The notes under the pieces are model-generated. The model saw only the letters and a list, made by a program, of their open reading frames with translations, was not told the origin of the DNA and did no database searches. Source: a virus (taxonomy: Duplodnaviria; Caudoviricetes). From it: DNA of 61,478 nucleotides. Position numbers and translations under genes: made by a program. Location of the stretch: positions 1 to 61,478 of IMG/VR virus record IMGVR_UViG_3300020595_000038. The stretch is one strand, 5' to 3'. Below are positions 2,240-56,556 of this stretch, piece by piece (position 1 is the first letter of the stretch; every line of letters begins with the position of its first letter).

Positions 2240-3400
2240 TTATGAGGCAGCAGAAATAACGTTTATTGTAATAGAATCTTTCTCTACGTTCTTTGCGAAA
2301 TCCACCTTTACTGATTTACCATCTACAATAGTAACATCAGCGTAAATCATTTTCTTTTTCAAGAATAAGGAAACAACTACATTTTCTGTTCCTAATCCAT
2401 GTTCAAACGTAAAAGTATTTGCTGCTGCTAGTTCGGGGAATATTCCGTTTGCTGCTTTGTTTTTTACTGTATCTAAGGCAATTGATATATCACCTAAATT
2501 TGACATAGTTCCAGAACCAGTAACATCTCCTGTAAGAGTTATCGTAGGGTCTGCAACATTAAAGTCTAATCTTCCATTAGTGTCGTCATAAGAAACTGCA
2601 ATACCTGATTGTGAACTACCAGTTTCACCAGTACCGCCTACCATTGCACCAACAACATCTTCTATTTGCTCGTCTGTTCTTACTTGAGAAGTTAAAGCAA
2701 TTTTTCCATCTGCATCTGGTAAAACTATTTTTCTGTCAGCACTTGGTTCTTCAATAGAAAGAACTGTTTCAAACTCATCGGCAGTTGCTCCTTCAAATAC
2801 AAAGGCATTTGTTACATTTACCTCTGTAGAATTTACAGAAACTGTATCCCCTTGGACTGTAAGGTTTCCTTTTATAATTACATTACCACTTGAATCAATA
2901 TTTCCAAATGCAACATTATCTTCAGGAGCAACTGCTTGCCCAATAGAAATCTCTCCGGCTGCTGATACATCAACTCCTGTACCTCCTGATATATACGCTT
3001 GTACATCTGCATCAGTATATTGGGTGATAGTGGTAGCGATCTCGCCATTAACAACTGTAATTCCTGTACCCTGTGAAAAATGTGCTCTTACTTCAGTAGC
3101 ACTTGGTCCTGTATAAGTAAATACACCTGTAGTATCGTCATAACTTAAAGAGCCATCACCACCTGAATCGGTAACACTTAAGGCGGCTGTTACTTCCGCA
3201 ATAGTTAATTTCTCTCCTAGACTGATCCATTCTTTGCCATCAAAGCATTGAAATTGATCTGTAGTACTGTTATAAATTACTTGTCCTGCAATCGCATCAT
3301 CCCCAAGAGTAGTTCTCTGGGTTGTAGTCATATTGTCTATAACTACAGATTTTATCTGATTTTGATTGAGATTAATATGATGTAAAAAATCTATCGCCAT
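2240..3400 (-). CDS. Tail fibre-associated virion protein
   Basis: Gly/Thr/Ser-rich beta repeats; N-terminus MAIDFLHH resembles MAIEFIHS of the next gene; C-terminal HGLGTENVVV domain. Confidence 0.65.
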   Translation of the reverse strand: MAIDFLHHINLNQNQIKSVVIDNMTTTQRTTLGDDAIAGQVIYNSTTDQFQCFDGKEWISLGEKLTIAEVTAALSVTDSGGDGSLSYDDTTGVFTYTGPSATEVRAHFSQGTGITVVNGEIATTITQYTDADVQAYISGGTGVDVSAAGEISIGQAVAPEDNVAFGNIDSSGNVIIKGNLTVQGDTVSVNSTEVNVTNAFVFEGATADEFETVLSIEEPSADRKIVLPDADGKIALTSQVRTDEQIEDVVGAMVGGTGETGSSQSGIAVSYDDTNGRLDFNVADPTITLTGDVTGSGTMSNLGDISIALDTVKNKAANGIFPELAAANTFTFEHGLGTENVVVSLFLKKKMIYADVTIVDGKSVKVDFAKNVEKDSITINVISAAS

Positions 3401-3406
3401 GGTGTA

Positions 3407-4624
3407 TTAATTTAGGTAAGCCTTCCCTGAGACTTTGGTGTTAAATGTTATTTTAATGATGTTCAAATTTACGTATTCTACCTCCGCATACATAATATTT
3501 TCATAGTCGTCAACGAGTGTGACTGAAGGTTTTTTATTAAGGCTATGTATAATCTCCCATTCTTTGTTAGAAGTTGGAAAAGTTTTTTCGTATGTTTTAA
3601 AAGGATTGTATTCAGGTACGTTTGTTAATCTCCCATAATTAACTGTTACCGCATATATTTGTGGACTAACTGAAACTATTTTTTCTAGAGTGTGCTCTCT
3701 TGGAACATCATTTCTTAAAACCGATAATATATCTCTTAAAATATCAGTGTTATCATCATCTATTAGATCTGAATCTAACCTTCTTACTAATAGATCAAAA
3801 TTTGTAATGACAAATTCTAAATTATCAGAATATCTTTTATGTAAATTAGAGTTATAACCATCATAAGTCTCTATTAAGTTTCTTAAGGTTCCAAAATAAG
3901 ATAACATCTCTACTTTAGTAGGGACCTTATATACTTTTAAGGACTCTGTTTTTTTGTATTCCGCAATTACTGTAGCCCAATTAAAATTAGTACTAGTGTA
4001 TGTGGCAGTAACTGTTGTATTTACAGTATACCTAGCATCATGATAAAAGCCATCTGTATCTACAATATTATACTCTCTAGAGGCTGCATCTAAACCTGTG
4101 CTAGTTTTATTGGATATACTTGATCCAGATACTATATTGGATGCACTAAACACTCTATTAACACTGTTTAGAGTATAGTTAGTTACGTTGTAATTAGGAG
4201 TTGTATCCTTTAGTTTAATTAAAGGGCTGAACTCATCTATATCTTGAAAAGATGTTAATGTAATTTTACTAAAATTAAAGTTGTAAGACTTGATTTTTAT
4301 AGGTGCTGAATCCTCTTTTATATAAAAGGAGTATTCAACTTTATAAGTTCCCTGACTTACTTGACCATCTGTTGAAGAAAGAGGTAAAATGTACTCAAAT
4401 ACATTTAAGTTACTTGAGGTTCCAGATATGTCTGCGACACCTCCTGCTTGATGGTTTCTTATTATGCCATCCGGTCTTGTTATTTTTATAAATATTTTGA
4501 CTTCATTCTGTGCTGCACTATATGTAGACGTGTCTGTAATCTTCAACGTAGGAGTCGAAGTCAAGTCAAACTGCATTGAAAAATCGACAGTTACATTGCC
4601 TATACTATTAGAAAAACTACTCAT
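3407..4624 (-). CDS. Putative virion structural protein
   Basis: Position; C-terminal WEIIHSLNKKPSVTLVD...SGKAYLN small beta domain seen in phage tail/decoration proteins. Confidence 0.5.
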   Translation of the reverse strand: MSSFSNSIGNVTVDFSMQFDLTSTPTLKITDTSTYSAAQNEVKIFIKITRPDGIIRNHQAGGVADISGTSSNLNVFEYILPLSSTDGQVSQGTYKVEYSFYIKEDSAPIKIKSYNFNFSKITLTSFQDIDEFSPLIKLKDTTPNYNVTNYTLNSVNRVFSASNIVSGSSISNKTSTGLDAASREYNIVDTDGFYHDARYTVNTTVTATYTSTNFNWATVIAEYKKTESLKVYKVPTKVEMLSYFGTLRNLIETYDGYNSNLHKRYSDNLEFVITNFDLLVRRLDSDLIDDDNTDILRDILSVLRNDVPREHTLEKIVSVSPQIYAVTVNYGRLTNVPEYNPFKTYEKTFPTSNKEWEIIHSLNKKPSVTLVDDYENIMYAEVEYVNLNIIKITFNTKVSGKAYLN

Positions 4625-18680: not shown

Positions 18681-19130
18681 CTTTTGAGTAGTTGCATTTT
18701 TTTTTAGGTTCTAAGATCATTAAAAAAACAGACCGGCATAATACCATTTAAAATTAATTAAAGTTCCTTACATTTGCTCAGAAGGGCATTGTAGATGTTT
18801 TTGTGGTATAACACCTAATATATGGTGGGCCAGAGGCAAATGGGAGAATGGGAATGAAAGACCGGGTACATGGCAAAAAAACGTTTTAAAGATCGAATTA
18901 GTCCACTTAGGACTAGCAACAACCCACCCCTACCTACTGACCCTCAGTCTGTTATACATTTACACAGGCCTATTATATCACCAGGATGCATTTTGTCCTG
19001 GACATTTTGTAAGAAAGGAAACGTTACGGATCCGATCAATGCCTAAATGAATTTGAATTGACGTGGTTACGTTAACGATGCAATGCTGTGCAAGAATTCT
19101 TACAAAACAAATCAAACAAAATATAGTAAC

Positions 19131-19265
19131 ATGAATGACATAAGAAATAGACTAAGCCAAGGACGTGACGAGGAGCATGTACAACGCAATCTAATAGTCC
19201 AAGGTTGGACGATCATTGCCGGTCTAATATGTATGATCATTGTAATAATCTTAGGTCAATGGTAG
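19131..19265 (+). CDS. Small membrane peptide
   Basis: 44 aa, C-terminal TM helix. Confidence 0.45.
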   Translation: MNDIRNRLSQGRDEEHVQRNLIVQGWTIIAGLICMIIVIILGQW

Positions 19266-19648
19266 TAGCGAAAAAGATAGTCGAACTCTTCAGCCATCAA
19301 CGTGCAGTAAATAAGTATATCAAGTCTTTGGACAATGAACTACAGTACAGAACTGTAATGGTATTTCTAGCATGTGCAATACGTGAGAGTGAATGTAAAT
19401 CGTCCTTCACCTTCTATACAATGCCACAGGTAATAAGTCTATGTGATCAGATGGATTGGTTAAGTAGTAAGCAGAACCAATACCCGGTGTACAGGGAACA
19501 CAAGAAGTTGATCGAACTAGGTTTCGTGGATAGGTTAACAAAGAAAGAATCTTACAAGGGACAACAGTTTTGTATTACAATATCCGGAAGACTACAAGTC
19601 CGTAGACTATACAATTACCTTATACGTGATCTTTATACTCCCCTATAG
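19259..19648 (+). CDS. Winged-helix (MarR-like) DNA-binding protein
   Basis: VYREHKKLIELGFVDR...FCITISGR wing motif. Confidence 0.65.
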   Translation: MVVAKKIVELFSHQRAVNKYIKSLDNELQYRTVMVFLACAIRESECKSSFTFYTMPQVISLCDQMDWLSSKQNQYPVYREHKKLIELGFVDRLTKKESYKGQQFCITISGRLQVRRLYNYLIRDLYTPL

Positions 19649-19730
19649 TAATTCTATAAGGTCACCCCAAAATGATGTGATAAGAAAACCCCAAAACCTT
19701 TACACGATACGGATCATATGTAAAGCACAT

Positions 19731-19807
19731 TGCCTGGTAGTTCAATTGGATAGAACAACAGACTTCTAATCTGTAGGTTGAGAGTTCGAGCCTCTCCCAG
19801 GTAACCA
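19731..19807 (+). tRNA. tRNA-Arg(UCU)
   Basis: Acceptor TGCCTGG/CCAGGTA, D arm GTTC/GAAC with GGA, anticodon arm ACAGA-CTTCTAA-TCTGT, T arm GAGAG-TTCGAGC-CTCTC, encoded CCA. Confidence 0.95.
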
Positions 19808-20030
19808 AAATTACCCTCGTTAAATTGATCCAGGTAATACTTACATGTGTTACCTGGTAGCACGAACCCTTACCCAATTCATAGTAATTACCCCCCAAAA
19901 AAAATCTCGGGCGGACGAAATAGTGCGAAAATCGTGCGTGATTTACTATCGTGCAAAAAGTTTTTTAAAGTTTTTTTCCTAGCGTTTACAGGTTGTACAG
20001 AGGTATTTACTAAAAAAAGTGTTATTCACA

Positions 20031-20063
20031 TTTGGTTGTTAATAAAAAAGGTTGTTATATTTG
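20031..20063 (+). promoter_or_regulatory. Bacteroidota housekeeping-sigma early promoter
   Basis: TTTG (20031-34), 21-nt spacer, TATATTTG (20056-63) matches the -33/-7 consensus. Confidence 0.85.
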
Positions 20064-20132
20064 TACCATCGTTCAACGAGTATGACACTCGAAACGCTTA
20101 TTAACTGAATATCAATTATTTAAACTGAAATT

Positions 20133-20378
20133 ATGAATTACTTAAGTACAGAACTGCAAACAGAATACCTTCCAAACTTCATAGGTATCAATGTCCACAA
20201 CGCTAGAATATCATACAGTAATTGGGGCGAGCATGGTGTTGATTTCAACTACTACAAAGATCCTTCTGATCCATTCAATCAACTATTTCAAGAAGATTTA
20301 CATAAGCCTTTTGCAGGCGGTACAGAATTTACTAGCAAAAAAGAAGCCTTAAGATTTATTAACTCTGTAAACCAATAA
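20133..20378 (+). CDS. Early hypothetical protein
   Basis: First ORF after the promoter. Confidence 0.6.
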   Translation: MNYLSTELQTEYLPNFIGINVHNARISYSNWGEHGVDFNYYKDPSDPFNQLFQEDLHKPFAGGTEFTSKKEALRFINSVNQ

Positions 20379-20381
20379 GCC

Positions 20382-20450
20382 ATGATCTTAATAGCAATCG
20401 CATTACCAATCGGATTAGCCGCAGCCTTCTTAAGAAGCAACAATTATTAA
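20382..20450 (+). CDS. 22-aa hydrophobic peptide
   Basis: MILIAIALPIGLAAAFLRSNNY begins 3 nt after the upstream stop. Confidence 0.4.
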   Translation: MILIAIALPIGLAAAFLRSNNY

Positions 20451-20486
20451 CTACCAATTTAATTTAAACTATTCAATATTATTATT

Positions 20487-20762
20487 ATGACAAATTCAAA
20501 TTACAACACCACAGCAAGATTCGACAGACATTCAAACTTCAATCCAATGATGATGTCTTTCATTCAAACAACGATCAACAACTTACGTAACGGAGGCTTC
20601 AGAGCATCTGACCTGGTTAACTCTCTTTACGGAATCTACGATGGTTATTACTACACGAACCTTAGAGCAGAAGCAGATCGTTTATATTCTCATGATATTT
20701 TCATGCTTAGAGATCTACATGCAATAGCAGACACCCTGGACAACATTACAGCCCAGGCTTAA
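20487..20762 (+). CDS. Early hypothetical protein
   Basis: 91-aa ORF; stop abuts hammerhead 1. Confidence 0.65.
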   Translation: MTNSNYNTTARFDRHSNFNPMMMSFIQTTINNLRNGGFRASDLVNSLYGIYDGYYYTNLRAEADRLYSHDIFMLRDLHAIADTLDNITAQA

Positions 20763-20816
20763 GATCACTGATGAGCCTGTGAGATCCAGGCGAAACTTCC
20801 TCCGGGAAGTCTGATT
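20763..20816 (+). ncRNA. Type I hammerhead ribozyme HH1
   Basis: GAUCA-CUGAUGA-GCCUG(UGAGAUC)CAGGC-GAA-ACUUCC(UCCG)GGAAGU-C/UGAUU; full core; cut after 20811. Confidence 0.93.
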
Positions 20817-20839
20817 AATACTAATTTAAACTAAGCAAT

Positions 20840-21175
20840 ATGAATACTGCAACAATTAAAAATGAATTAAAAGAGTACCTAAATGATTTTGTCGCTGACA
20901 ACAACGATGTTAAATGGAATAGCGAAGACAACGATTTACACCAGGAGGCATTTAACCAGGACTATTATTTAATTGGTTACTACAATTGTAATCAATGGCT
21001 AGAGAGTCACGACATCAATATTTTTGATGGTCTCAACTTTGTGCAAGATTACGAAAGAGAGAATTTTGGTGCTGAATCTGTTAGATCTTATCAAGATTCT
21101 GAAGCCCTGGTAAACATGATTACTTACATAATAGGCGAAGAAATAGTAAACGAATTATACACACAAACAATTTAA
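20840..21175 (+). CDS. Acidic early protein, possible Ocr-like DNA mimic
   Basis: 111 aa, D/E-rich, DNDLHQEAFNQDYY reminiscent of T7 Ocr DDLHDAIH; early position. Confidence 0.45.
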   Translation: MNTATIKNELKEYLNDFVADNNDVKWNSEDNDLHQEAFNQDYYLIGYYNCNQWLESHDINIFDGLNFVQDYERENFGAESVRSYQDSEALVNMITYIIGEEIVNELYTQTI

Positions 21176-21185
21176 ACTCAACAAT

Positions 21186-21443
21186 ATGAAAAACAATAAA
21201 ATATTACAGGAACACAGTACAGGAGACCTAATGGCAGAACTAAAGTCAAGAGGAAAATTTATAGACAATCTTTGGACAACACAAGATGTATTTGGAAGGT
21301 ATGATTGTACTGAAGCCGAAGCACAAGAAGTGCTATACGATGCACTAACCAACGATTCAACAATGGAGCAGATTTGGTTTGCTATAGACTTGGCTGCATA
21401 CGATAATGAATTAACTGAAAGAGAGGAGGCTAACAATGGATAG
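21186..21443 (+). CDS. Early acidic hypothetical protein
   Basis: 85-aa ORF. Confidence 0.6.
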   Translation: MKNNKILQEHSTGDLMAELKSRGKFIDNLWTTQDVFGRYDCTEAEAQEVLYDALTNDSTMEQIWFAIDLAAYDNELTEREEANNG

Positions 21444-21753
21444 TATTAATATAATTACAGCAAATGATTATTATAACGGATTGATAGCAGAATACATGGA
21501 TATGATTTTTGATGATAACGACAAGTCAATGATGATAGTAAAAACCCCACAAGGTAATGATATCATATACCTTGATGAACTTAAATACCACACCTCTTGG
21601 GATTGGCTCATGCCTGTAGTAGGAAAAATAAGTCGAGATGAAAGGTTTCTTGATAACGAATACAGAGAGACCCTATTGGATGTCGTTCCTTATGGACGTA
21701 TTCAAGATGTCGTAGATGCAGTAGCAAATTTCATTCTACACGTAAAAAAATAA
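21436..21753 (+). CDS. Early hypothetical protein (YHTSWDWLMPVV family)
   Basis: LKYHTSWDWLMPVVGKI motif, which I recall as recurrent in phage early genes. Confidence 0.65.
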   Translation: MDSINIITANDYYNGLIAEYMDMIFDDNDKSMMIVKTPQGNDIIYLDELKYHTSWDWLMPVVGKISRDERFLDNEYRETLLDVVPYGRIQDVVDAVANFILHVKK

Positions 21754-21754
21754 A

Positions 21755-21806
21755 ACAAACTGACGAGCCTGTGAGATCCAGGCGAAACGCTGAGAAGCGT
21801 CTTTGT
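21755..21806 (+). ncRNA. Type I hammerhead ribozyme HH2
   Basis: ACAAA-CUGACGA-GCCUG(UGAGAUC)CAGGC-GAA-ACGCU(GAGA)AGCGU-C/UUUGU; cut after 21801. Confidence 0.93.
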
Positions 21807-21826
21807 ATAACTAAAAAACAATTACA

Positions 21827-22258
21827 ATGCAGACTATTGAAAACCTTAATGCGATTATCAAATTAAACAAAGCCTTAAAAAACCACGATTGGTATTACGA
21901 AAGATCAGAAGATCCTAGAGTATATAGAAATGGTAGATCACAACGTAACGAGTTAAATATTCTTATGACTGCTATAGGTAATAAGTCTCTTGCTCTCTCC
22001 CTATACAATAAAGCATGTCCTTGGATTGAGATCATTGAATCTGATGAGGTCACCCCGGATCGTTTCAGCATGAGAGAACAAGCACAGGAATTAATAGACA
22101 ATGGAGACTCTACAGAAAAAGCAGAGGGATTTGGAATGATGAGAGTTTTGGATGCGATTATGGATGCTATTGAATATGAAGCAGACAAAGAAGAGGAGCA
22201 GCCAACAGACAGCGATTGTCTTGATCAGATTTACGCAATCTTAAACACCTCAGTATAA
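21827..22258 (+). CDS. Early hypothetical protein (HDWYY domain plus acidic domain)
   Basis: NHDWYYERSED motif; internal in-frame ATG at 22070. Confidence 0.6.
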   Translation: MQTIENLNAIIKLNKALKNHDWYYERSEDPRVYRNGRSQRNELNILMTAIGNKSLALSLYNKACPWIEIIESDEVTPDRFSMREQAQELIDNGDSTEKAEGFGMMRVLDAIMDAIEYEADKEEEQPTDSDCLDQIYAILNTSV

Positions 22259-22566
22259 TGGAAACTTTAAATATTATTAGACAACAGGTAACTACTAGAG
22301 GCGGAGGTATAGAAATATGCCTAGAAAATCAGGGTTATCCAGGAGAAAAAATGACAGCCTACCAAAACTATTTAGGAGGTGGAATTTTAGGTAGAATTGG
22401 TAACGATTGTACAATTAAAAATTGGGATGAGTCTAAACACCTGGTAGATCTCGCAGACAGTTTAGCAAAGATCATGCACAGGATGACAGCACCAATTTAT
22501 TTACAAGGTGAGGAACTTGAGCAAACATATAGTCAAAATCAATCTATGCCAATAAGTGCATACTAA
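22258..22566 (+). CDS. Early hypothetical protein
   Basis: TAATG-coupled to upstream ORF. Confidence 0.6.
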   Translation: METLNIIRQQVTTRGGGIEICLENQGYPGEKMTAYQNYLGGGILGRIGNDCTIKNWDESKHLVDLADSLAKIMHRMTAPIYLQGEELEQTYSQNQSMPISAY

Positions 22567-22577
22567 AATCAAAAACA

Positions 22578-22724
22578 ATGGCAGTTATAACAAGTAAAAA
22601 ACTAACAGAAGTCCAGGATCAATTAATAGATCTTGGATGGGAGACACAGAGAATGTCATCCTCGGGAATAGAATCCTATAATAAATTATGTAGAATATTT
22701 AATGTTGAAGAAGTAGAATTATGA
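22578..22724 (+). CDS. Hypothetical 48-aa protein
   Basis: Hand translated ...LIDLGWETQRMSSSGIESYNKL...; ATGA overlap with next ORF. Confidence 0.6.
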   Translation: MAVITSKKLTEVQDQLIDLGWETQRMSSSGIESYNKLCRIFNVEEVEL

Positions 22725-23086
22725 AACAAGAACAAGAGCAAGTATTTTACAGCGTAACGAAAGCAGTGATCTACGGACAGTTAATGCTTGAAGCGTTAGA
22801 CGATATTAAGGAACTATCAATTTTCAAGCACTCCTTAAAGCATAAGGTGAACCAGGTAGAAAAGGAATTGGAAAAGGAATTGGAAAAGTATATTAATCTG
22901 TTCGCTGAAAACGATGAGCAGTTTTATATGAATATCCAAAACCATATAGACAATTTAGTAACTAAACTTTCAATGCTAGGAGTCGAAGAACTTCCATTGG
23001 TAGCGAAGATCATTGATGAATACATTAACGATAAGGAACATTGGAAAGAGAACTTAACAATACAATTCAAACAATTAAATTCATAA
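22721..23086 (+). CDS. Hypothetical helical protein
   Basis: 121-aa ORF. Confidence 0.6.
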   Translation: MKQEQEQVFYSVTKAVIYGQLMLEALDDIKELSIFKHSLKHKVNQVEKELEKELEKYINLFAENDEQFYMNIQNHIDNLVTKLSMLGVEELPLVAKIIDEYINDKEHWKENLTIQFKQLNS

Positions 23087-23088
23087 GC

Positions 23089-23325
23089 ATGGGAACCAAT
23101 ATTAAAATGGGAAAGTTTATAAAAACGAATGTCCTTGACACGATCTCCAGGAAATATAAATATGATCCGGATCGATCTCTTGTTTATTTAAAAGAGATAA
23201 CAGCACAACTTCTAGAGGTTCAAGCCCTGGTAGATGAAACGACAGTGTACATGAATGATGTACTTGACATTAAAGAAAGAATACTAGCACAAGAATTTTT
23301 AACAAGACAAGGGGATGAGCAGTAA
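23089..23325 (+). CDS. Hypothetical protein
   Basis: Start moved to ATG 23089. Confidence 0.55.
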   Translation: MGTNIKMGKFIKTNVLDTISRKYKYDPDRSLVYLKEITAQLLEVQALVDETTVYMNDVLDIKERILAQEFLTRQGDEQ

Positions 23326-23488
23326 AGAAGATCAAGAGTTAAAAGCACAAATAAAAGAGATGTTTCCTAAAGGAACAAGTGAGCAATTTATAAACAATAT
23401 GTTTCACAGTTTAAGAGGTAAAAAAATGATATGGGATACTTTTTCTATGAACGATAGTAAAAATATAACAAAGAAGTTCACAGATTAA
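23315..23488 (+). CDS. Hypothetical 57-aa protein
   Basis: Hand translated MSSKEDQELKAQIKEMFPKG... Confidence 0.5.
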   Translation: MSSKEDQELKAQIKEMFPKGTSEQFINNMFHSLRGKKMIWDTFSMNDSKNITKKFTD

Positions 23489-23555
23489 ATATAAATAATG
23501 CTTAATTTAGCATTGTCAGACGATGAACGAAAGTTAAAAATTAATTAATACTCAA

Positions 23556-24125
23556 ATGAAAAAAGATATGACCACAGTAAACCACGATATAGATATTATT
23601 TGCGATGCAGTAGCAGTAGTAACTAAAGCAGATCCGCACGCTAAAGATAGAGCAAGAGAAAATGTTGATGCCAGGAGAATTGTTTATAAAATATGTAGAG
23701 AGATGTTGAACCTTACTTATATAAGGATATCAAAATATTTCAACAACAATCACGCTACAGTATTGCATGGTCTTAAACATTTTGATGCTTTATTTGAAAC
23801 GGATAAGGAATTTAGAAGGAATTACAATGCAGTGATGCAAGTAATATCTAGTGTAGAATTTGATAGCAACATCATTGACAGTCAAGATATCCTTGTCGAT
23901 TTTGTAAACTTAAAAACAGAGTCAATGGATATTAAACAAAAATATGAGATGCTGTTAAGATCCCTACATTTTAAAGTTACAGATAAAGTAGACGAGTTGC
24001 TTTCCCCAATCGATAATGAATTGTTACATAAGATAATTCAAGACGACAACTGTTCAAAGGATTTACAGCGTACTATTGGTAAAGTCTTGCAAGTAAAAGT
24101 AAAAAACATTATCTTAACACCCTAG
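23556..24125 (+). CDS. DnaA domain IV-like HTH protein
   Basis: ARRIVYKICRE...ISKYFNNNHATVLHGLK parallels DnaA RQIAMYL...IG..F..RDHTTVLHA. Confidence 0.8.
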   Translation: MKKDMTTVNHDIDIICDAVAVVTKADPHAKDRARENVDARRIVYKICREMLNLTYIRISKYFNNNHATVLHGLKHFDALFETDKEFRRNYNAVMQVISSVEFDSNIIDSQDILVDFVNLKTESMDIKQKYEMLLRSLHFKVTDKVDELLSPIDNELLHKIIQDDNCSKDLQRTIGKVLQVKVKNIILTP

Positions 24126-35173: not shown

Positions 35174-38100
35174 TTAATCTAGTATTGTTTGTCTCCAAAC
35201 TTTTTGGTTTTTTAATTTTGATTTTGCTTGAGCCGCAGTCCACATTTTTGCTATTGCTTTTTTATGTATGCTTTGAGATTTTCCTGTGTGAGTTAAAATC
35301 TTATCATCCTTTTTACCTCGACCATTCATATACCTAACAAGCATCTTGCTAAACTCTAGCCCTGTTGTTTGTTGGTGTTGGTAAAGTTCTTCCGGCTCTA
35401 GGACTCTTAAATCTCTACCTACTCTTAGAGGACGATTTTGTATTTTACCAGGGTAAGCATTATATTTATCTAAATATGCCCATCGAGGATCTTCACCTCT
35501 TATACCTCTCCAATGAGTATAAGGTATTACAGTTTCTCCCGGGTAACTCTTAGCCTCTTCTCCAAAAGCATCTATCTTAGGTTTACCGAAAACTTGACTT
35601 AATCCTGCCGCATATAGTAAAGCATTTTTAGCATCACCTGCACTGTATGAATTAGCATCAAATATTTTAGTTGCCTGTCTAAATAGATTTGCATTCTGTG
35701 GAAGTGGTCGTAAAAGCGTACCACCTACAGATCTTATAGAAGACTTACCCATTCTTTGTAAAGTCCTTGTCATGTCATCATCACCAACTTTATTAGGATC
35801 GTACTGAGTACCTCTACCAGTAAATGATTTAGTTACTGCTTCTGTCATATCTTTTACAGATGTTAACACAGATGAATCCATAATTAAGTTAGCAGAGTTT
35901 GCATAAGCAATAAGCAATCTATCTTGCATGTCATCAAACACCTCACCTTTTCCTCCTGTCATTTTCATTGTCTCCATATAGTTTCCTATAATTGCAAGAG
36001 GTATTGATAATGGAATAATATTTCTATAATCCATTGTTGCATCTCCAATCTTTACAGTATAAGGAGGAAGTGGAGCGTTTTTCATATCACTTCTTGTGTA
36101 TGGGTTTGAATTGTTATATCCACCACCGCTTACTTCAAAGAAAGGATTCTCATCATCATCTTCATAAGCCATGGCCGCTAATGCCGCTAAACCTAAGAAT
36201 GATGTTGTACCAAAGTATGCTCTAGATAATTGCTCTTCTCTCATCCTAGTACCCTTATCACCCAATCCATCTTTAGTAGCATATGCTCTTGCTAATCCAA
36301 ATCCAGGAGTAACATCAATCATGTATTCTCCAATGGACCCGATTATACTTGTAAACGGCACAAAGGATTTTAATACAAGTTTACCTAAGAAACTTCTATC
36401 AGGATCATTAGATGCTTGTCTTATTTTATTTGCTACAAATGCAATAGGATGTGTATAGAAAGGACCTCCTCTGTTATCAATAAACACTTGAGCATTACTT
36501 GCCAAGTTGGCATCAGTTGCAATACCCTTTATTTCAGCCTCTTTCATGGCTTTCATAAATTCCTTAAACTCTTCTATTGTTCCATCAAACCCATCCTTCT
36601 CTTTCATAACTTCAAGTTCAGCATCAGACTTGTTTACAAAGTCTTCACTATACCTTTTAGCCATTGCCTCATGCATCAGTTCTCTTACTCTTACTACTTC
36701 AATATTACTAAAGTCAGTATCAGGATCTGCCTTACGCATTCTATCCATTAAAGCCTCCATCTCCTCTTTAGCATGTGTCTTAACCTCTGTTGCTAAATAA
36801 AGATCAGCAGCCCTTTGTCTTAACTCGTTTCTTGGAACTCCATCTTTTTGAAGTTGATCCAATAGATAATTATAGTATCTACCTTCATAACCAACCTTAC
36901 TTATGAATCTATCCGTAGAGTTTAAAAGCCTACCTACGAACTTATAATAGTTATAAGGATTCGCTTTACCACCTTTAAATTCTGTAGTCTCAAGAACATT
37001 ATATTGACCAGACTCATTATTTGATTCTGTGCCCTGATACTTATCTACTCTAGCACCATTCTTCATTATATCCATGGCCATATTATAACCTTGAGATAAG
37101 CCTCTTCTATTTGAGCCGTTTCCTATTTTTCTTATAAAATTTAAATACCCTCCAGTAAATATTCTATCAACTCTAGACATATCCATTAATGGCTGTAAAA
37201 CTATATTAGCACTACCTGAAGTAGCATTTAATACCTGAGTAGATGCTCCTGAAAGCATAGCCGCATACTGTAATGCAAAAAATGTGTCTTGCCATGAATA
37301 TGATGGTACTACTGAATCCATATACTTATACATAGATCTCATAGCAACATTAGCCAACTCACTATTCTCTGGAGATTCTTTAATTATTTCATGTAACTCT
37401 TGAATTTTTGCTCTTTGCTCTGGTGATAGTGTTGTACTTTCTAACTTAGTTTTTCTACCTCCAAACAGCCTATTAATAAAATGTCCAATACTTCCTCTTT
37501 TATCAAAGGCTTCATTAAACTTCTCCATCGCAATTTCAGTTCTATCTATCAAAGATGCACTAGTTTGTGCGGTCCAAGATCTTAGAGCAGCAGATGCTTG
37601 CCCGGATAAAGTTCCATCCTCTGCTAACTGAAACTCAATAGCCGACATTGTTTCTAATGCGTTGTCAATCTCAGATTGTGATGCTCCTTCAGATCTAAGT
37701 TTACTAACCTTTAATCCGTAGTGATGAAGTGCTGCTTGTCTAGCAAGTTGAACTCTAGGTAATTCCTTTATAGTTGGATTCTTTTTAAGTAAGTCTTTTA
37801 TAACTCCTTCATTCTCAAACCCTCCTTCTTGTTGATTAACTTGATCTATGATATCCTCCATAGTCTCCTGCATACTCATAGTCTCGTAATAGTTTGGATT
37901 TTCATTTACCCAATCATATACTTCAGACTTACCTACATCATCGTTCTTTGCTTTGTTAATTGAGTTTTCTTCAAACCCTCTTTGCTTCATGCCTTTAGTT
38001 CCCATAAATTTATTAAGGACTAAACGTGCTTCTTCGGTAGACAGTTCTTTACCATCTACTCGCTGAGAGTATGTTTTTATACCATAAAGTAATTTGGAAA

Positions 38101-41100
38101 CAGACGCACCCTTATCACTAAGAGTACTTAAGAATGAGGTTAACTGATCCGGAAGACTTTGTTTGTCTATTCTTCGGTGTTGGACCCCTGATATCGATCC
38201 GCCATCATCTGTCTGTACAGTTCCAGAGAAGCGGGATCCATCTCCTTCGTCTTGTTGTCTTTGTGCATCGATATTTGAATCGCCTTGTCCTGACTCGAAT
38301 TTTCTTCCCTTGGACTGGAAGTATTCCTTTGTACGTGTTTTGCTAGTTCCTTTAAATAAGTCTTTTGATCCATTTTCTATATTATTTAAGATTTCGTTGT
38401 ATTGATTATTATGAGCAACGAATGTATCTACATAATGGTTGTAAAAGTACAAAACATTCTCGTTGTTTTCCAAATTTAATTTAGTTTCTTGTGCACTATT
38501 ACTCCAGTCAGAAACTGCTTGCATTACATTTTCATCTGTAATATCTTCTTCATTTTCAAATACAAACTCTGGAACAAATTGATACTTAACACCTAAGACC
38601 TTATCTCCTGCTTCATTCGTTATAAAAGTATAACCGGAAATGTCTGTCTTTATTGGCCCTAATTGAACACCTTCCTTGTCTAAATTTTCTCTAGCAAAAG
38701 TAGATGCTTCTTCAAAACTCATAGGAGTTCTAAATTGCATTTCAACAGCAGGTCGAGCGTTTGGACGTTTAGCCAATTCTCTTTCCACACTTTCAGGATC
38801 CATTCTCTCATCAATTGGTAACACCTCTGATAAAAACACAGACTCTTGCTCATGTTTCTTTGCTGACTCTAATGCTCTTTTTAAAACAGGAGTCATATCT
38901 TGACCTGACTTAACAATCATCTCAGCATCAAAACTTCTTTCAGGATATATTAAGTATTGTCCTTGAGTTTTGTTAACCTTTAATGATACTAGGTCACCAT
39001 CTCTTAAATCGTTCTGAATTGATTGTCTTTCCTCTTCTATTATATCTAAGTTCTCTTTTGATTCTAATACAGGATCTGTATACTGATCTCTCTCTGTACT
39101 TAAACCTAAGTAATATCTAGTAATATCGCTCTTGCCTGCTTCTTCTCTGAAATCAGATTTCTTAGCAGCAGTACCTTTTGACCAACCTTTCTTTAACCAA
39201 AGATCTTTTTCAGCAAACCATAAGTATGCTTGAAGATCATCAGGATCCATTCCTAGTTTTTGAGAAGCATTTATTATTACTCCCTCTGCTAGTTGGTAAT
39301 CAGATACTCCACCTGCATCAGCAGCATAGACTCTCTCATCTACACCCTGTTCTGCTCGCTCTGCGATTCTATATCTATCTACATTACCATCGTAAATCAT
39401 TCTTCTAATGGTACGAGCAGCCCACAAATCAATCGTAGGATTGGTTGTCATCCCTACTACATTCTCATAGAAGTTGTTAGTTTTGCTTTGTTGAGTTTGT
39501 TTAAGCCATATACCTGCCAATACTTTAGCAGCAGCAGGACTATTGATGCCGTACAACTTAGTAGGATTGTCTGTTCTAAATAAAGGATTTGCCTTTGGAT
39601 ATAGGTTTAATAATTTCCTTTTGGTTTCATTAATATCTTTTGGATCAGGCTTTATTCTTGACTCGCTGTATGCTGTCTTGCCTTGTTTTTTTAGAGCATT
39701 GACTGCTCTTCCTTTATATTCATTGAAAAACTCATTAAGTTCTTCTTCGTTTTCAAACTGTTCAACACGATCTATAAAGTCTTTGTATTCTTCAATGTAC
39801 TTATCATATGCTCCTTTTGAATATGCTTCTAAGGCTTGTGTTGCATACTTATAGTTCTGCTGAACATCAGTCTGACCTGAAGTAGCACCTAACAATCTCC
39901 CAAAGAAATTAGTTCTTCCACCAAAAGTATTTCTCATACTAATATGTAAGTCCTTATACCATCCTAATCCTTTGACTACTTCTGGTACATCTTTATTCGC
40001 ATTAAACTCCTCTACAATTTTATCTCCAATCTGATCAACTTTTTCTTCTACACTTCCTTTTAAATGTTTATTAATTCCATTTACTAAAGAATATGATTGA
40101 CCTGAAATCTTTACTTGTAACTTACCACTTTTAGTTTTCTTAAACTGATACTTTCCATCCTTCATGACTGGATTTAACTCCGCTAAAGTAGGGTCGCTGC
40201 CTAAAGTTTCTTTTAGGTTATTAAACTCTTTTATTGCCTCACGCTCTGGATTTTTATATCTCTGTGCATCAATAGCATCTATATCTATACTTTCTTTTTT
40301 AGAGTCTGGATCTATATTAGTAGCAGACATAATTTTCTCTGCACTAGAATTTATAACAGCATCTAAACTAGTTGTTTGTATATCAAAGTCTGCTTCCGTT
40401 GGTAGGTTTAAAGCAGATTTAATAATTTCTTTTACCTGGCTTATAATCTTTTCAAACTCTGATTGTCTCTTAGGATCTTTAAATATTTTAGCACTCTTTT
40501 CTCCTATTGCTTGAACTAATGCTTCGTTTAAGGCCCTGTCTCCGTATCCGTTTTTGACAGCATCTTTATGAAATTTAGTTCCCTTGATTAGAGACATTGC
40601 TTTCTTATGTGCCTCCGGATTTAACTCCGCTAACATATCTTCCCATATATGAGCGAACTCATGTATAGGCGTATCTAATGTTGCAAGTTCAGGGTTAATA
40701 AAAATCTCGTTAGTAGTTCGGTTTCTAAAACCTTTATTTTTACTAGGATCTAATCCATTCTCCCTTGCTTTTTCATTAAAGGCCTCCTGATCTAGAGTGA
40801 CAGTAGATCCTTTAAATACTCTTTGAAAATGATTGGCTAACTTTTTAATGTCACTAAAGACATCTCCTGTTTCAGGATCAATACCAGATATTTGAGGTTT
40901 TTGATCAGTCTTAGTTTTAGAATCCGATTTAGTTTTAGAATCACTTTTAAAACTGTTAGGATCTTGTTTTACCAATTTACCATCTACAACTTTATATATA
41001 TCATAGTTGGACATATCCCTTGCAGGAGTATTAGGTTTTGGTACAACAATACCTCTGCTTTCTTTTCGAGTTGCTTTATTTACTTTATTATTATTAGGTT

Positions 41101-43969
41101 GCCAGTTGTCTGGATCTACTGTTCCAGGCTTAGAAACCACAACATATCCACCTTCAACATTCTTTACAGTGTTTGAATAAATACCTCCTTCTTGAAAGTT
41201 TGGTGCTCCATCTTTACCATTGGCCTTAGCAACGTTAAATGAAGTCTCTCCTTTAGGTGCAACCCCTTCAGTAAAACTACCTTCAGTTTCTCTTTTACCC
41301 TTGATCTGACCTCCATTAACCCAGTTCTCAACAGCCTCTCGACTTTTTGTTTTGTGAGTAACTACATCAGAACCATATTTTTCAGGAACATTTTCTACTT
41401 CTATTGTTTCCTCTACAAAAAGTTCAACTTCATTTTCAACTTTTGGTGATAGTGGTTTTAGTATTTGATCTAATTCTTTATCAGCATCAGATTGTTCTTC
41501 TTTTGATACTTGAATCTCCTGTTCATTAAAGACTCTTATTTGTTTCTGACCTCTGTTATATGCAGCGGCCATACGTTTCATTCCATCTAAAACATTTCCT
41601 TGTTCATCAATAACAGCAGGAGCATTCTTTTGCTTGCCATCATATTCCATGTCAGGATTTTCATCTACAAACTTCTTGAATTCTTTATTTGTTTCATAAA
41701 GAGTTTCAAGGGTCACCCTCTTCATTTTAAAAGTTCTGTTCTGTATGTTCTCTAACTTTGATGCTAACTCTTTATCTGTTTTACTGTCTCCTACACTTTC
41801 AATAACAGAAACAACTTTACTACCATCAACAATAGAACCTGGTTTAGGCATACCACTTTTGATGTCTGCTTTTTTCTCCTCAACTATTGCTTTTGATTCA
41901 GGAGTTTGCGGAGCAGGTGAATTCATTTCATCATACACTAGAGCCGCTTCTTCAACTATCTGATTCATAGGAGTACCGGCATCCTTTAAAGGAGTAACAA
42001 TATTTTCATATTGTCTTGCTTTATCCAACATCCCTTCAGCAGTTTCTTTTGAAAAACTAGGATTCTTTTTCTTTAATTCTTTTTGAACTGATTTCTCAAA
42101 GTTTACAAAATCTAATCCTGCTGTAGTCCAGGCTTCTTTCTCCATTTGAGTTGATGACACACCCAAGTTTGGACTAGCCATTAATGTAGTTGCCGTTGCT
42201 GTAAGAATAAGTGTATTAATAAACTCATCTTTACCCATGAACTTATCTACACCATATATAGGCTCTGGAGATCTTTGATCATACTTGTATTTTTGGTAGT
42301 TTTCAAAACCACCTTGTACTAGTTCTTCTACTTCCTCTGAACTAACTTCTTTTATATATGCTTTACCACCTGCTTTTATAGCCATCTGTCTACTTCCGGA
42401 ATTTGCTAATACTTTAACCGCTTCTTTAGTAGCCTTACTACGTACACCCATCATTGCTGAAACACCTCTTCTTGCTAAAGGGTTATTAAATATCGCACCT
42501 GTAGCACCGGTAACCACACCTATACTTAAGGCCATTGCCTCTGCATCTTCTGGATCTACTCCTAATTCTCTTGCTTCTTTGTTTGTTTGGTGATATGATT
42601 TAAAGAATTGGTCACCCCCCATTACAGCACCTGCTGCTAATGATCCACCACCTGTATATGCTGCGGCTACAATTGCCGGAGCCATTTCTCCTACAGTCTT
42701 TAAAGTCATAGGTAAAATATACATTGGATTGTCTGCTAATGATGCACCTGCAACTTGATCTGGGATATAGGCAAACTGCCCAATTGCAGTGTCTTTCCAA
42801 TTATCAGAAGAAAAGAAATGTGAAATATTATCTGCTACATCTTCAATTTGTCTGTCAAATTTTTCGTCTTGAGCCGCTAAGGATGCATTTGTCTCATCTG
42901 AAGCAAGTGAACTTCCAATTGCATCTGCTAATAATACTCCCGGATTCAGTTTATCTCCATGCTTTCCAAAAAATTCAACTGCTCCACCTGCTAAGTCTCC
43001 TAAAGTCGATACAATTGCTCCTAAACCTACCATTACTGACGTGTCTAAGTAACCCGGTCCCATTGCACCACCTAAACCTGGTCCCATTGCACCACTAAGT
43101 CTCATGGTCTGCAACATATCTTTTGCTTCTGCTGAAACAAAATCTCCGTAATTGTTCTTTAAGTGATTATGATAACTTGTAGCCATGTCCTCGTGGGACT
43201 TGTACATCTTCATGAACGCTTCGTCTTCACGAAGTTCAGGCATATATTTAAAAAAATCAGCGTTTCTCTCTACATAATCATAAAGATTTGTATCATAGTT
43301 TTTTGCTATATATCTAAGAGCATTAACTTTAAACTTTGTTCCTTGAAAATTTCTTGCCTGTTTAGTAAACTCATAACTAGCCTTAGGATCAGAGAAATAA
43401 TCTTCCCCTTCCGCTAAGTCCCCACTATACTTATTTGTAAACTCTGGATCTGTTTGTCTTAAGACTTGACCAAACTGAATAAGGTTTTTCTTAACCGATT
43501 CATCAGTACCTTCTGGCATTAGGTTAGGGTTTGAAATAACACCATCTACCTCTTGATTATTATACATCTCTGTACCTTTATCAATAGATGCTTGTATCTT
43601 AGCCCACTTGCCTTGTGCGTTTTCCGGATTTACCTGAGAATTCACTACGTTAAGTGCTCCATTATTATTTTCGTATTCAGGAAACTGAACACCCTCTAAC
43701 TCTGGAAATAGGTTTGGAAACTTAGAATTTAATTCATCGCCTTCTTCGTAACGTCCTCTATTGAATGTATTACCCCATGTTACAGCATCTTGAAATTGCT
43801 CCTGATTTAAACCAGGAATAACATTTTGAATATCTGCAATTTGAAAGTTAGAAGAACTAGTTCCTCTTGCACGTCTTAATCTGTCTGCAAGAATAGTTAA
43901 TTGATCTTGTTTATCGTCTATACTTAAATCTACAAAAGGATCAACTCCTAAGATATCTTCGTCTTCCAT
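35174..43969 (-). CDS. Giant polyvalent internal virion/ejection protein, 2931 aa
   Basis: Gly/Ala hydrophobic helices, ParB-like motif, HEFAH zincin, glycosylase-like domain, long helical C-terminus. Confidence 0.75.
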   Translation of the reverse strand: MEDEDILGVDPFVDLSIDDKQDQLTILADRLRRARGTSSSNFQIADIQNVIPGLNQEQFQDAVTWGNTFNRGRYEEGDELNSKFPNLFPELEGVQFPEYENNNGALNVVNSQVNPENAQGKWAKIQASIDKGTEMYNNQEVDGVISNPNLMPEGTDESVKKNLIQFGQVLRQTDPEFTNKYSGDLAEGEDYFSDPKASYEFTKQARNFQGTKFKVNALRYIAKNYDTNLYDYVERNADFFKYMPELREDEAFMKMYKSHEDMATSYHNHLKNNYGDFVSAEAKDMLQTMRLSGAMGPGLGGAMGPGYLDTSVMVGLGAIVSTLGDLAGGAVEFFGKHGDKLNPGVLLADAIGSSLASDETNASLAAQDEKFDRQIEDVADNISHFFSSDNWKDTAIGQFAYIPDQVAGASLADNPMYILPMTLKTVGEMAPAIVAAAYTGGGSLAAGAVMGGDQFFKSYHQTNKEARELGVDPEDAEAMALSIGVVTGATGAIFNNPLARRGVSAMMGVRSKATKEAVKVLANSGSRQMAIKAGGKAYIKEVSSEEVEELVQGGFENYQKYKYDQRSPEPIYGVDKFMGKDEFINTLILTATATTLMASPNLGVSSTQMEKEAWTTAGLDFVNFEKSVQKELKKKNPSFSKETAEGMLDKARQYENIVTPLKDAGTPMNQIVEEAALVYDEMNSPAPQTPESKAIVEEKKADIKSGMPKPGSIVDGSKVVSVIESVGDSKTDKELASKLENIQNRTFKMKRVTLETLYETNKEFKKFVDENPDMEYDGKQKNAPAVIDEQGNVLDGMKRMAAAYNRGQKQIRVFNEQEIQVSKEEQSDADKELDQILKPLSPKVENEVELFVEETIEVENVPEKYGSDVVTHKTKSREAVENWVNGGQIKGKRETEGSFTEGVAPKGETSFNVAKANGKDGAPNFQEGGIYSNTVKNVEGGYVVVSKPGTVDPDNWQPNNNKVNKATRKESRGIVVPKPNTPARDMSNYDIYKVVDGKLVKQDPNSFKSDSKTKSDSKTKTDQKPQISGIDPETGDVFSDIKKLANHFQRVFKGSTVTLDQEAFNEKARENGLDPSKNKGFRNRTTNEIFINPELATLDTPIHEFAHIWEDMLAELNPEAHKKAMSLIKGTKFHKDAVKNGYGDRALNEALVQAIGEKSAKIFKDPKRQSEFEKIISQVKEIIKSALNLPTEADFDIQTTSLDAVINSSAEKIMSATNIDPDSKKESIDIDAIDAQRYKNPEREAIKEFNNLKETLGSDPTLAELNPVMKDGKYQFKKTKSGKLQVKISGQSYSLVNGINKHLKGSVEEKVDQIGDKIVEEFNANKDVPEVVKGLGWYKDLHISMRNTFGGRTNFFGRLLGATSGQTDVQQNYKYATQALEAYSKGAYDKYIEEYKDFIDRVEQFENEEELNEFFNEYKGRAVNALKKQGKTAYSESRIKPDPKDINETKRKLLNLYPKANPLFRTDNPTKLYGINSPAAAKVLAGIWLKQTQQSKTNNFYENVVGMTTNPTIDLWAARTIRRMIYDGNVDRYRIAERAEQGVDERVYAADAGGVSDYQLAEGVIINASQKLGMDPDDLQAYLWFAEKDLWLKKGWSKGTAAKKSDFREEAGKSDITRYYLGLSTERDQYTDPVLESKENLDIIEEERQSIQNDLRDGDLVSLKVNKTQGQYLIYPERSFDAEMIVKSGQDMTPVLKRALESAKKHEQESVFLSEVLPIDERMDPESVERELAKRPNARPAVEMQFRTPMSFEEASTFARENLDKEGVQLGPIKTDISGYTFITNEAGDKVLGVKYQFVPEFVFENEEDITDENVMQAVSDWSNSAQETKLNLENNENVLYFYNHYVDTFVAHNNQYNEILNNIENGSKDLFKGTSKTRTKEYFQSKGRKFESGQGDSNIDAQRQQDEGDGSRFSGTVQTDDGGSISGVQHRRIDKQSLPDQLTSFLSTLSDKGASVSKLLYGIKTYSQRVDGKELSTEEARLVLNKFMGTKGMKQRGFEENSINKAKNDDVGKSEVYDWVNENPNYYETMSMQETMEDIIDQVNQQEGGFENEGVIKDLLKKNPTIKELPRVQLARQAALHHYGLKVSKLRSEGASQSEIDNALETMSAIEFQLAEDGTLSGQASAALRSWTAQTSASLIDRTEIAMEKFNEAFDKRGSIGHFINRLFGGRKTKLESTTLSPEQRAKIQELHEIIKESPENSELANVAMRSMYKYMDSVVPSYSWQDTFFALQYAAMLSGASTQVLNATSGSANIVLQPLMDMSRVDRIFTGGYLNFIRKIGNGSNRRGLSQGYNMAMDIMKNGARVDKYQGTESNNESGQYNVLETTEFKGGKANPYNYYKFVGRLLNSTDRFISKVGYEGRYYNYLLDQLQKDGVPRNELRQRAADLYLATEVKTHAKEEMEALMDRMRKADPDTDFSNIEVVRVRELMHEAMAKRYSEDFVNKSDAELEVMKEKDGFDGTIEEFKEFMKAMKEAEIKGIATDANLASNAQVFIDNRGGPFYTHPIAFVANKIRQASNDPDRSFLGKLVLKSFVPFTSIIGSIGEYMIDVTPGFGLARAYATKDGLGDKGTRMREEQLSRAYFGTTSFLGLAALAAMAYEDDDENPFFEVSGGGYNNSNPYTRSDMKNAPLPPYTVKIGDATMDYRNIIPLSIPLAIIGNYMETMKMTGGKGEVFDDMQDRLLIAYANSANLIMDSSVLTSVKDMTEAVTKSFTGRGTQYDPNKVGDDDMTRTLQRMGKSSIRSVGGTLLRPLPQNANLFRQATKIFDANSYSAGDAKNALLYAAGLSQVFGKPKIDAFGEEAKSYPGETVIPYTHWRGIRGEDPRWAYLDKYNAYPGKIQNRPLRVGRDLRVLEPEELYQHQQTTGLEFSKMLVRYMNGRGKKDDKILTHTGKSQSIHKKAIAKMWTAAQAKSKLKNQKVWRQTILD

Positions 43970-56199: not shown

Positions 56200-56556
56200 T
56201 TAAATAGTTGTTTGAGGCTCTAATTTAACTATCCAAGGTGCTGAAGTTTGCTGAAATTTATTCTCTTCGGCTACTATGATTTGCTTATCAATAATTGTAA
56301 TAGCAATCGATCTCTCGTCTGTATCACTAACCCAAGGCTTGATGTTAGCCTCAACTAAATCATCAAATACAATGTAATCATCTCCAGGTAGATCCAGATC
56401 CTTAGTATATCTAAGAGATGCTTTTGTTCCTGATTCAGAAGTTCCTACCCATTCATACTCAACTCTAGTAACTAGATTCTCATAATCTTTATCACCATCC
56501 TTAAGAGTTGGAGCACAATACAATTCTACTATTTTTAATTCATAATTATTTGCCAT
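56200..56556 (-). CDS. Tail fibre assembly-like protein
   Basis: Follows the fibre; YIVFDDLVEANIKPWV...PW. Confidence 0.55.
   Translation of the reverse strand: MANNYELKIVELYCAPTLKDGDKDYENLVTRVEYEWVGTSESGTKASLRYTKDLDLPGDDYIVFDDLVEANIKPWVSDTDERSIAITIIDKQIIVAEENKFQQTSAPWIVKLEPQTTI

Follow-up and report, generated by a model that had tools for sequence, protein, structure and literature searches.

We examined a genomic stretch from an uncultured marine tailed phage (Duplodnaviria; Caudoviricetes), IMG/VR virus record IMGVR_UViG_3300020595_000038, in which two hammerhead ribozymes, here called HH1 and HH2, lie between small genes. The stretch, which we refer to as the window, is the entire record of 61,478 bases, with an estimated completeness of 97%; it encodes a terminase, a portal, a primase-helicase, a RecE-like exonuclease, and two integrase-like genes, and DNA nearly identical to it is present in marine metagenomes. 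Both ribozymes sit inside a plus-strand run of small, tightly spaced open reading frames (ORFs) without Pfam or NCBIfam matches, a block that is presumably early and co-transcribed. The ORFs share their strand, and the two predicted cuts, 990 nt from each other, enclose three ORFs (Table 1).

Table 1 Features of the two-ribozyme locus (positions in the window).
Feature	Position	Strand	Remarks
tRNA-Arg	19731-19807	+	anticodon TCT; 0.96 kb upstream of HH1
Upstream ORF, 91 aa	20487-20762	+	TAA stop at 20760-62 directly adjoins HH1 stem I; 81-89% identical in sister phages G001, G003 and G004
Competing 8-bp helix, HH1	20754-20779	+	CAGGCUUA (20754-61, last codons of upstream ORF) predicted to pair with 20772-79
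HH1, type I hammerhead	20763-20816	+	predicted cut after C17 at 20811
HH1 stem I, 5′ strand	20763-67	+	GAUCA
HH1 core	20768-74	+	CUGAUGA
HH1 stem-loop II	20775-91	+	GCCUG-UGAGAUC-CAGGC
HH1 GAA	20792-94	+	
HH1 stem III	20795-20810	+	A-CUUCC-UCCG-GGAAG-U, including the A15.1-U16.1 pair
HH1 C17	20811	+	
HH1 stem I, 3′ strand	20812-16	+	UGAUU
Leader, 28 nt	20812-20839	+	A/U-rich, without Shine-Dalgarno motif; from HH1 cut to ATG at 20840
111-aa ORF	20840-21175	+	first of the inter-ribozyme block; PHROGs phrog_10208, unknown function
85-aa ORF	21186-21443	+	inter-ribozyme block; 17 relatives in IMG/VR
105-aa ORF	21436-21753	+	inter-ribozyme block; TAA stop at 21751-53; 137 relatives in IMG/VR
HH2, type I hammerhead	21755-21806	+	predicted cut after C17 at 21801
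HH2 stem I, 5′ strand	21755-59	+	ACAAA
HH2 core	21760-66	+	CUGACGA
HH2 stem-loop II	21767-83	+	17 nt, same as in HH1
HH2 GAA	21784-86	+	
HH2 stem III	21787-21800	+	A-CGCU-GAGA-AGCG-U
HH2 C17	21801	+	
HH2 stem I, 3′ strand	21802-06	+	UUUGU
Leader, 25 nt	21802-21826	+	from HH2 cut to ATG at 21827
Downstream ORF, 143 aa	21827-22258	+	62-71% identical in G001, G003 and G004

An earlier note, made from the letters of this DNA, had described the pair as intact hammerheads, and a direct reading of the sequence bears out the anatomy that it gave. The conserved core (C3-U4-G5-A6-N7-G8-A9, G12-A13-A14, and a non-G at position 17) is complete in HH1 and HH2, the sole core difference being U versus C at the free position N7; the two share one stem-loop II sequence, and stems I and III differ in sequence yet pair in each copy, including around the GAGA loop. 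The cut sites that the note had predicted are also correctly positioned. The core-adjacent pairs G10.1-C11.1, A15.1-U16.1, and U1.1-A2.1 are formed in both elements, where the rule for accepting such pairs (N10.1-N11.1, N1.1-N2.1, A15.1-U16.1) was taken from the accessible text of Perreault et al. 2011 (PMC3088659). Stems I and II are 5 bp long and stem III 5-6 bp; stems II and III are free of mispairs in either copy, and stem I has no non-standard pair, with one G-U wobble in HH1. In each copy loops close stems II and III but not stem I, which is open; this is the type I topology. By every sequence and structure criterion checked, both elements belong to the hammerhead class. An integron attC-like reading was set aside because the conserved unpaired bases are the hammerhead core, as was a tRNA-linked (theta-type) reading, given that the tRNA-Arg gene is not adjacent.

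The earlier note had also pointed to the Rfam hammerhead models as a check, and in this respect it was disappointed, as both elements score below threshold. Over positions 20500-22100 at a loose expectation (E) value, the best family was RF03152 (RAGATH-1-hammerhead), with 24.4 bits for HH1 and 19.9 bits for HH2 against a threshold of 56.3, followed by RF00008 (Hammerhead_3) with 19.3 and 17.4 bits against 48.5. RF00163 (Hammerhead_1; threshold 34 bits), run directly, matched neither element, its sole match being one of 13.5 bits at 574-612; this miss is a limit of that model and has no bearing on the core features. As the curated models were of no help, we built a covariance model, R1, from relatives of the two elements. 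R1 covers type I hammerheads only and is based on alignment A1, a gap-free seed of 24 sequences that includes HH2's own copy and not HH1. With filters off and the whole window as target, R1 gave 81.7 bits for HH2 (E 3e-23) and 60.2 bits for HH1 (E 2.3e-16), and the remaining 18 listed matches in the 61-kb window reached at most 11.8 bits. A third, decayed hammerhead in the window was sought with the same model and none was found, the best match between HH1 and HH2 being 10.1 bits at 21405-21455. The lack of any Rfam family at threshold is what one would expect if the motifs were chance resemblances or decaying relics; the wide gap between the two R1 matches and the next one, and the retention of both copies with compensatory changes in 11 of 12 contigs from sister phages, make that explanation negligibly probable.

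These sister contigs came from an exact search of IMG/VR for the 24-nt stem-loop II stretch common to HH1 and HH2, which returned 23 loci on 12 contigs; in the 11 contigs with two copies, these are spaced 705-1051 nt apart. The sister phages show paired replacements on both sides of the helices: stem I of HH1 changes from GAUCA/UGAUU to GAUUA/UAAUC and its stem III from CUUCC/GGAAG to CAUCC/GGAUG, and stem III of HH2 changes from CGCU-GAGA-AGCG to CGCUC-UGCG-GAGCG. A degenerate pattern with no constraint on stem II, in which just the core and the UGAGA of loop II were specified, matched at least 130 loci in IMG/VR. Stem I (5 bp), the stem III hairpin, U16.1, and non-G17 were complete in 109 of the 118 unique matches listed, compared with 65 of 2360 shuffled-downstream controls, and all four unconstrained stem II pairs were present in 117 of these 118, where shuffled partners averaged 27 and reached at most 42. 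In hammerheads, fast cleavage at low Mg2+ depends on a tertiary contact of loop II with stem I. Among relatives, loop II consists of UGAGA (fixed by the search pattern) plus two bases, and A-rich bases lie beside the 5-bp stem I.

Covariation follows the three helices closely. In A1, 99.7% of cells are paired and double changes occur in 9 of 15 pairs, with none of 500 shuffles scoring as high. Applying R1 to 79 sources (285,836 bases) recovered 140 hammerheads, the 119 distinct ones forming alignment A2, in which helix cells are paired in 97.1% of cases versus 67.8% when shuffled and at most 38.3% with partners slid; changes on both sides are seen in 13 of 15 pairs, and the covariation score is 0.689 versus 0.159 in shuffles. 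As A2 was fitted to R1 it is biased toward pairing, a bias that the test on the unconstrained stem II does not share. Ranked by mutual information, the top nine column pairs all belong to the helices, and a covariation search for an extra pseudoknot or tertiary pair found none outside the three helices. The claim of selected function, which the earlier note had drawn from the two paralogs, is therefore supported, and is strengthened by the orthologs and the 119 distinct relatives.

One could argue that this selection acts on folded RNA, and that the motifs serve, without cleavage in vivo, as 3′ stabilisers, pause- or terminator-like hairpins, or protein-binding sites. The identity of stem-loop II between the copies is compatible with such a role, and a terminator scan did flag the stem III hairpin of HH2 (21787-21800); the T-run that follows HH2 is weak, however, and is not a family feature. 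Moreover, every catalytic nucleotide is retained in HH1, HH2, and the relatives, and the drifting stems are compensated, which argues for selection on the catalytic core and not on hairpins alone, and we regard a purely structural role as very unlikely. Scans for promoters (30 versus 24.3 in shuffles) and terminators (4 versus 2.6) returned no more candidates than shuffled sequence.

The UGAGA-loop type I subclass was also seen at 64 loci in prokaryote genomes, including Thaumarchaeota, Bathyarchaeota, Propionicimonas, Acinetobacter, and Legionella; none of these 64 loci is in Bacteroidota. In an unrelated 92.7-kb phage, a 5.6-kb stretch (G005 contig 1, 79263-84832) holds eight type I hammerheads, all of them on one strand.

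Both ribozymes are fitted between genes with little room to spare. The first base of HH1 is the base after the TAA of the 91-aa ORF, HH2 begins one base beyond the TAA of the 105-aa ORF, and ribozyme and leader together fill the whole spacer, which is 77 nt at HH1 and 73 nt at HH2. The arrangement recurs in at least 109 relatives. In 76 of the 109 examined, the stop of a long upstream ORF falls at the ribozyme's 5′ edge or just within it, with a gap of 0 in 50, a 1-nt overlap in 16, and a stop within the core UGA in 10. In 98 of the 109 a start codon lies within 200 nt of the predicted cut; the median distance is 27.5 nt, and in 42 of these 98 it is 25-29 nt. The layout of stop codon, ribozyme, leader of ~27 nt, and start codon is a rule of this family.

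The motif, its conservation and covariation, and this stop/start placement are shown by the sequences themselves; cleavage, co-transcription, and an effect on the mRNAs are what we infer. HH1 and HH2 are probably active type I hammerheads that cut a polycistronic early transcript co-transcriptionally into separate mRNAs. While the long transcript is being made, each motif would fold into a three-helix junction in which the 2′-OH of C17 attacks its own phosphate, breaking the RNA after 20811 and 21801. On the upstream product, nearly all of the folded ribozyme would remain as a 3′ cap with a terminal 2′,3′-cyclic phosphate, and the downstream product would begin with a 5′-OH and a short, unstructured A/U-rich leader of 28 or 25 nt ahead of the start codon. 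Three messages would result, one with the genes up to 20762, one with the three-gene block 20840-21753 as a ~990-nt RNA, and one with the genes from 21827 on, and the stability and translation of each would be uncoupled from those of its neighbours.

Several points weigh against this transcript-processing interpretation. At gathering thresholds Rfam 15 reports only the tRNA in the whole window, and again only the tRNA with E up to 0.5. Thermodynamic folding alone is unremarkable (z -1.1 to -1.5), and the weak 5-bp stem I is not formed in three of four minimum-energy folds. HH1 is further challenged by a predicted competing helix with the end of the upstream ORF (Table 1; duplex -12.5 kcal/mol, z -2.4, rank 3 of 118), which sequesters U7-G8-A9 and the 5′ strand of stem II and, in the minimum-energy and centroid folds of 20740-20840, displaces the ribozyme fold. 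Such a helix could slow or prevent folding of HH1, or tie it to the passage of ribosomes, and may equally be an accident; it is absent from the sister phages, and the idea that it is a family trait was rejected, given a family median z of 0.05. We infer co-transcription of the small-gene block, moreover, solely from its common strand and tight spacing. Finally, a 2019 review (PMC6765202) still describes the purpose of phage hammerheads as undefined, and a 2026 paper (PMC13725137) says the same of their role. We also compared RNA-library contigs (three runs) and DNA contigs (one run) with positions 19000-24000. The RNA-library cover is thin and patchy, and no RNA piece among those listed spans either cut site, whereas DNA contigs do; contigs cannot show RNA ends, and their cover supports no verdict on cleavage or transcription.

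A further reading accepts cleavage and gives the released RNA another fate, in which the ~990-nt piece from 20812 to 21801, bearing a 5′-OH and a 2′,3′-cyclic phosphate, is circularised or joined to another RNA by an RtcB-type ligase. The end chemistry of hammerhead products suits ligases of this type and thus fits the idea. Spliced or circular products were raised as a possibility by Perreault et al., who looked for them and detected none, according to the accessible text (PMC3088659). In the phage itself, no ligase gene appeared among the proteins scanned against PHROGs and Pfam, which comprise part of the ORFs. No joint from 21801 to 20812 occurs in the compared contigs, whose cover is too thin for this to count. 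A joined end would not rebuild a ribozyme, since the stem I strands of the two elements lack mutual complementarity. Ligation of this kind appears highly improbable.

Sister phages vary in the genes that they carry between the ribozymes. G001, G003, and G004 retain the gene that precedes HH1 and the one that follows HH2, and not those in between; four configurations of the inter-ribozyme segment are seen in the 12 contigs. DNA homology to G003 extends over 20459-20834, ends 5 nt ahead of the ATG, and resumes at 21753, the 5′ edge of HH2, and homology to G001 runs up to 21188 and likewise resumes at 21753. The unmatched share of the window's inter-ribozyme segment is 58-64% in sisters with the 111-aa ORF and 100% in seven others, the best match being 42%. 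Hammerhead number also varies, with three each in G001 and G002 and four each in G003 and G004, and the window lacks the middle hammerhead of the sister phages. The one or two additional sister-phage hammerheads without counterpart in the window (L154:1335-1392; L155:1863-1920 and 3321-3416) have another stem II (GAUC-UUUAU-GAUC), one of them with a stem III of ~45 nt, and each lies ~20-25 nt before a start codon.

This pattern suggests a rival account in which the ribozymes are active, and selection maintains a DNA-level or modular role, the ribozyme-leader units acting as fixed junctions for gene exchange between related phages; cutting of the message would then free any inserted gene from its neighbours. 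The homology limits near the ATG and the HH2 edge (20834 and 21753 for G003, 21753 for G001), the four configurations, and the conserved flanking genes around variable inner ones all fit such an account, as does the statement in the accessible text of Perreault et al. that the flanked genes are not constant (PMC3088659). Of the four breakpoints, nevertheless, the one at 21188 (against G001) coincides with an ordinary gene boundary. At 22254-22702, moreover, two neighbouring small genes are swapped relative to L155:2730-3222 in G003 at a place without a ribozyme, so the small-gene block is mosaic beyond the ribozymes too, and the ~55 nt of common sequence is short for homologous exchange. Homologs of the 85-aa and 105-aa ORFs provide another argument: at 97 loci in other viral contigs, with up to 2 kb on each side (less at contig ends), hammerheads of the type I model R1 were found at one, so these window-specific genes do not travel with ribozymes. 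The notion of a ribozyme carried along with its gene was rejected for these two ORFs on this count, and the ribozyme slots would seem to belong to the recipient array and not to the genes. At the single locus with type I hammerheads (L251), these lie at 1227-1284 and 3322-3378, on either side of a ~2-kb stretch that includes the gene. That breakpoints and ribozyme edges coincide is suggestive and not proven, and we consider a role primarily in gene exchange unlikely. A speculative and rather doubtful extension of transcript processing would combine both aspects, with the stop codon-hammerhead-leader units acting as RNA-level sockets between which genes are swapped, each newcomer receiving its own message with a standard 5′ end in a cassette-like manner without an integron; HH1, in this phage in particular, might further be translation-gated, with a terminating ribosome freeing its core.

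The identity of the flanked genes offers little guidance, as Pfam, NCBIfam, the protein Atlas, and PDB sequences gave no match, and the PHROGs families that matched are all of unknown function. Of the three ORFs between the ribozymes, PHROGs recognised the 111-aa ORF alone; for this acidic protein an ArdA-like reading was without support. The 85-aa ORF has 17 relatives in other viral contigs and the 105-aa ORF has 137, which marks both, on sequence grounds, as real genes. Across the whole window, a Shine-Dalgarno-like 4-mer at -18 to -4 precedes 3 of 68 ORFs of at least 80 aa, fewer than a background rate of 6.9% would give, and the A/U-rich leaders and few Shine-Dalgarno motifs suggest that the host probably does not rely on Shine-Dalgarno pairing. 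Scarcity of this motif is compatible with a Bacteroidota-type host, and a host of that type is our tentative assignment. Elsewhere in the window are three very long minus-strand ORFs at 35174-43969 (2931 aa), 48059-53284 (1741 aa), and 56546-61477 (at least 1643 aa). In two RNA-library runs, contigs pass directly from 20130 to 20368 ahead of HH1; the 237 nt left out correspond almost exactly to an 81-aa ORF at 20133-20378, which hints weakly at a phage variant lacking that ORF, the short side of the junction being only 29 letters long. In contigs from three runs the sequence ahead of 19737 is unrelated, which indicates that the tRNA-Arg is common to other organisms in those samples, and a BLAST search of GenBank phages with 19500-23500 matched the tRNA alone, in 11 records.

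Our results add a further well-supported pair to the many hammerheads found in phages, in an arrangement that has been known there since 2011. Three aspects make the pair more than one further example. The gathering thresholds of Rfam 15 miss an entire type I subclass that is common by the counts given above, so routine annotation leaves such spacers blank. The regular order of stop, ribozyme, leader, and start offers a handle for testing the effect of cleavage on phage mRNAs. Inter-ribozyme genes, lastly, are replaced among sister phages, with breakpoints at ribozyme edges. As the function of phage hammerheads is unproven, a tractable model would help, which the uncultured source phage is not; a literature search for a tested role of phage hammerheads found none after Perreault et al. 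2011.

Among the curated families, RF03152 shares with HH1 and HH2 the order of stem I, CUGAUGA, a short stem II, GAAAC, a stem III hairpin, GUC, and stem I, as well as an A-rich stretch before stem I. The two elements differ from it in a longer stem-loop II (5 bp and a 7-nt loop) and in that the model's extra 5′ hairpin is not formed, its pairs being marked non-standard in both alignments; because that hairpin is absent, they are not RAGATH-1 variants. RF00163 and RF00008 have the same catalytic core, and the UGAaAu loop in the RF00008 consensus for stem-loop II is similar to the UGAGAUC loop of HH1 and HH2, although RF00008 is a type III permutation of which only the core aligned. Type I hammerheads of RNA viruses, intergenic and at 5′ ends, are alike in their long helix III, in their position just upstream of an ORF start, and in that cleavage makes the 5′ end of a translated RNA, according to the accessible part of their description (PMC13725137); they differ in belonging to eukaryotic RNA viruses, with cuts down to 7 nt from the start codon, whereas here a DNA phage has leaders of 25-28 nt. 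The same text sets aside type I hammerheads of DNA phages as already described. Elsewhere, three type II hammerheads near phage-like genes of Desulfovibrio vulgaris cleave in vivo, as stated in the accessible portion of that report (PMC8782182).

The closest counterparts are the clusters of Perreault et al. 2011 (PMC3088659), which, in the accessible text, flank single genes or short blocks in prophages and phages; cleavage was demonstrated in vitro for three tandem sets and in E. coli for one, and processing of long phage transcripts was proposed for the clustered prophage hammerheads. As in the window, several hammerheads lie close together on the coding strand around a gene or short block whose identity is not constant, in a phage genome with integrase-like genes nearby. 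Their type I list, as far as it is accessible, includes Legionella drancourtii LLAP12 and a thaumarchaeon, and our subclass scan matched the same strain and phylum, so the UGAGA-loop subclass is very probably part of that collection. What differs is the host virus, an uncultured marine phage, and the number of copies, two here against three or four in its sister phages.

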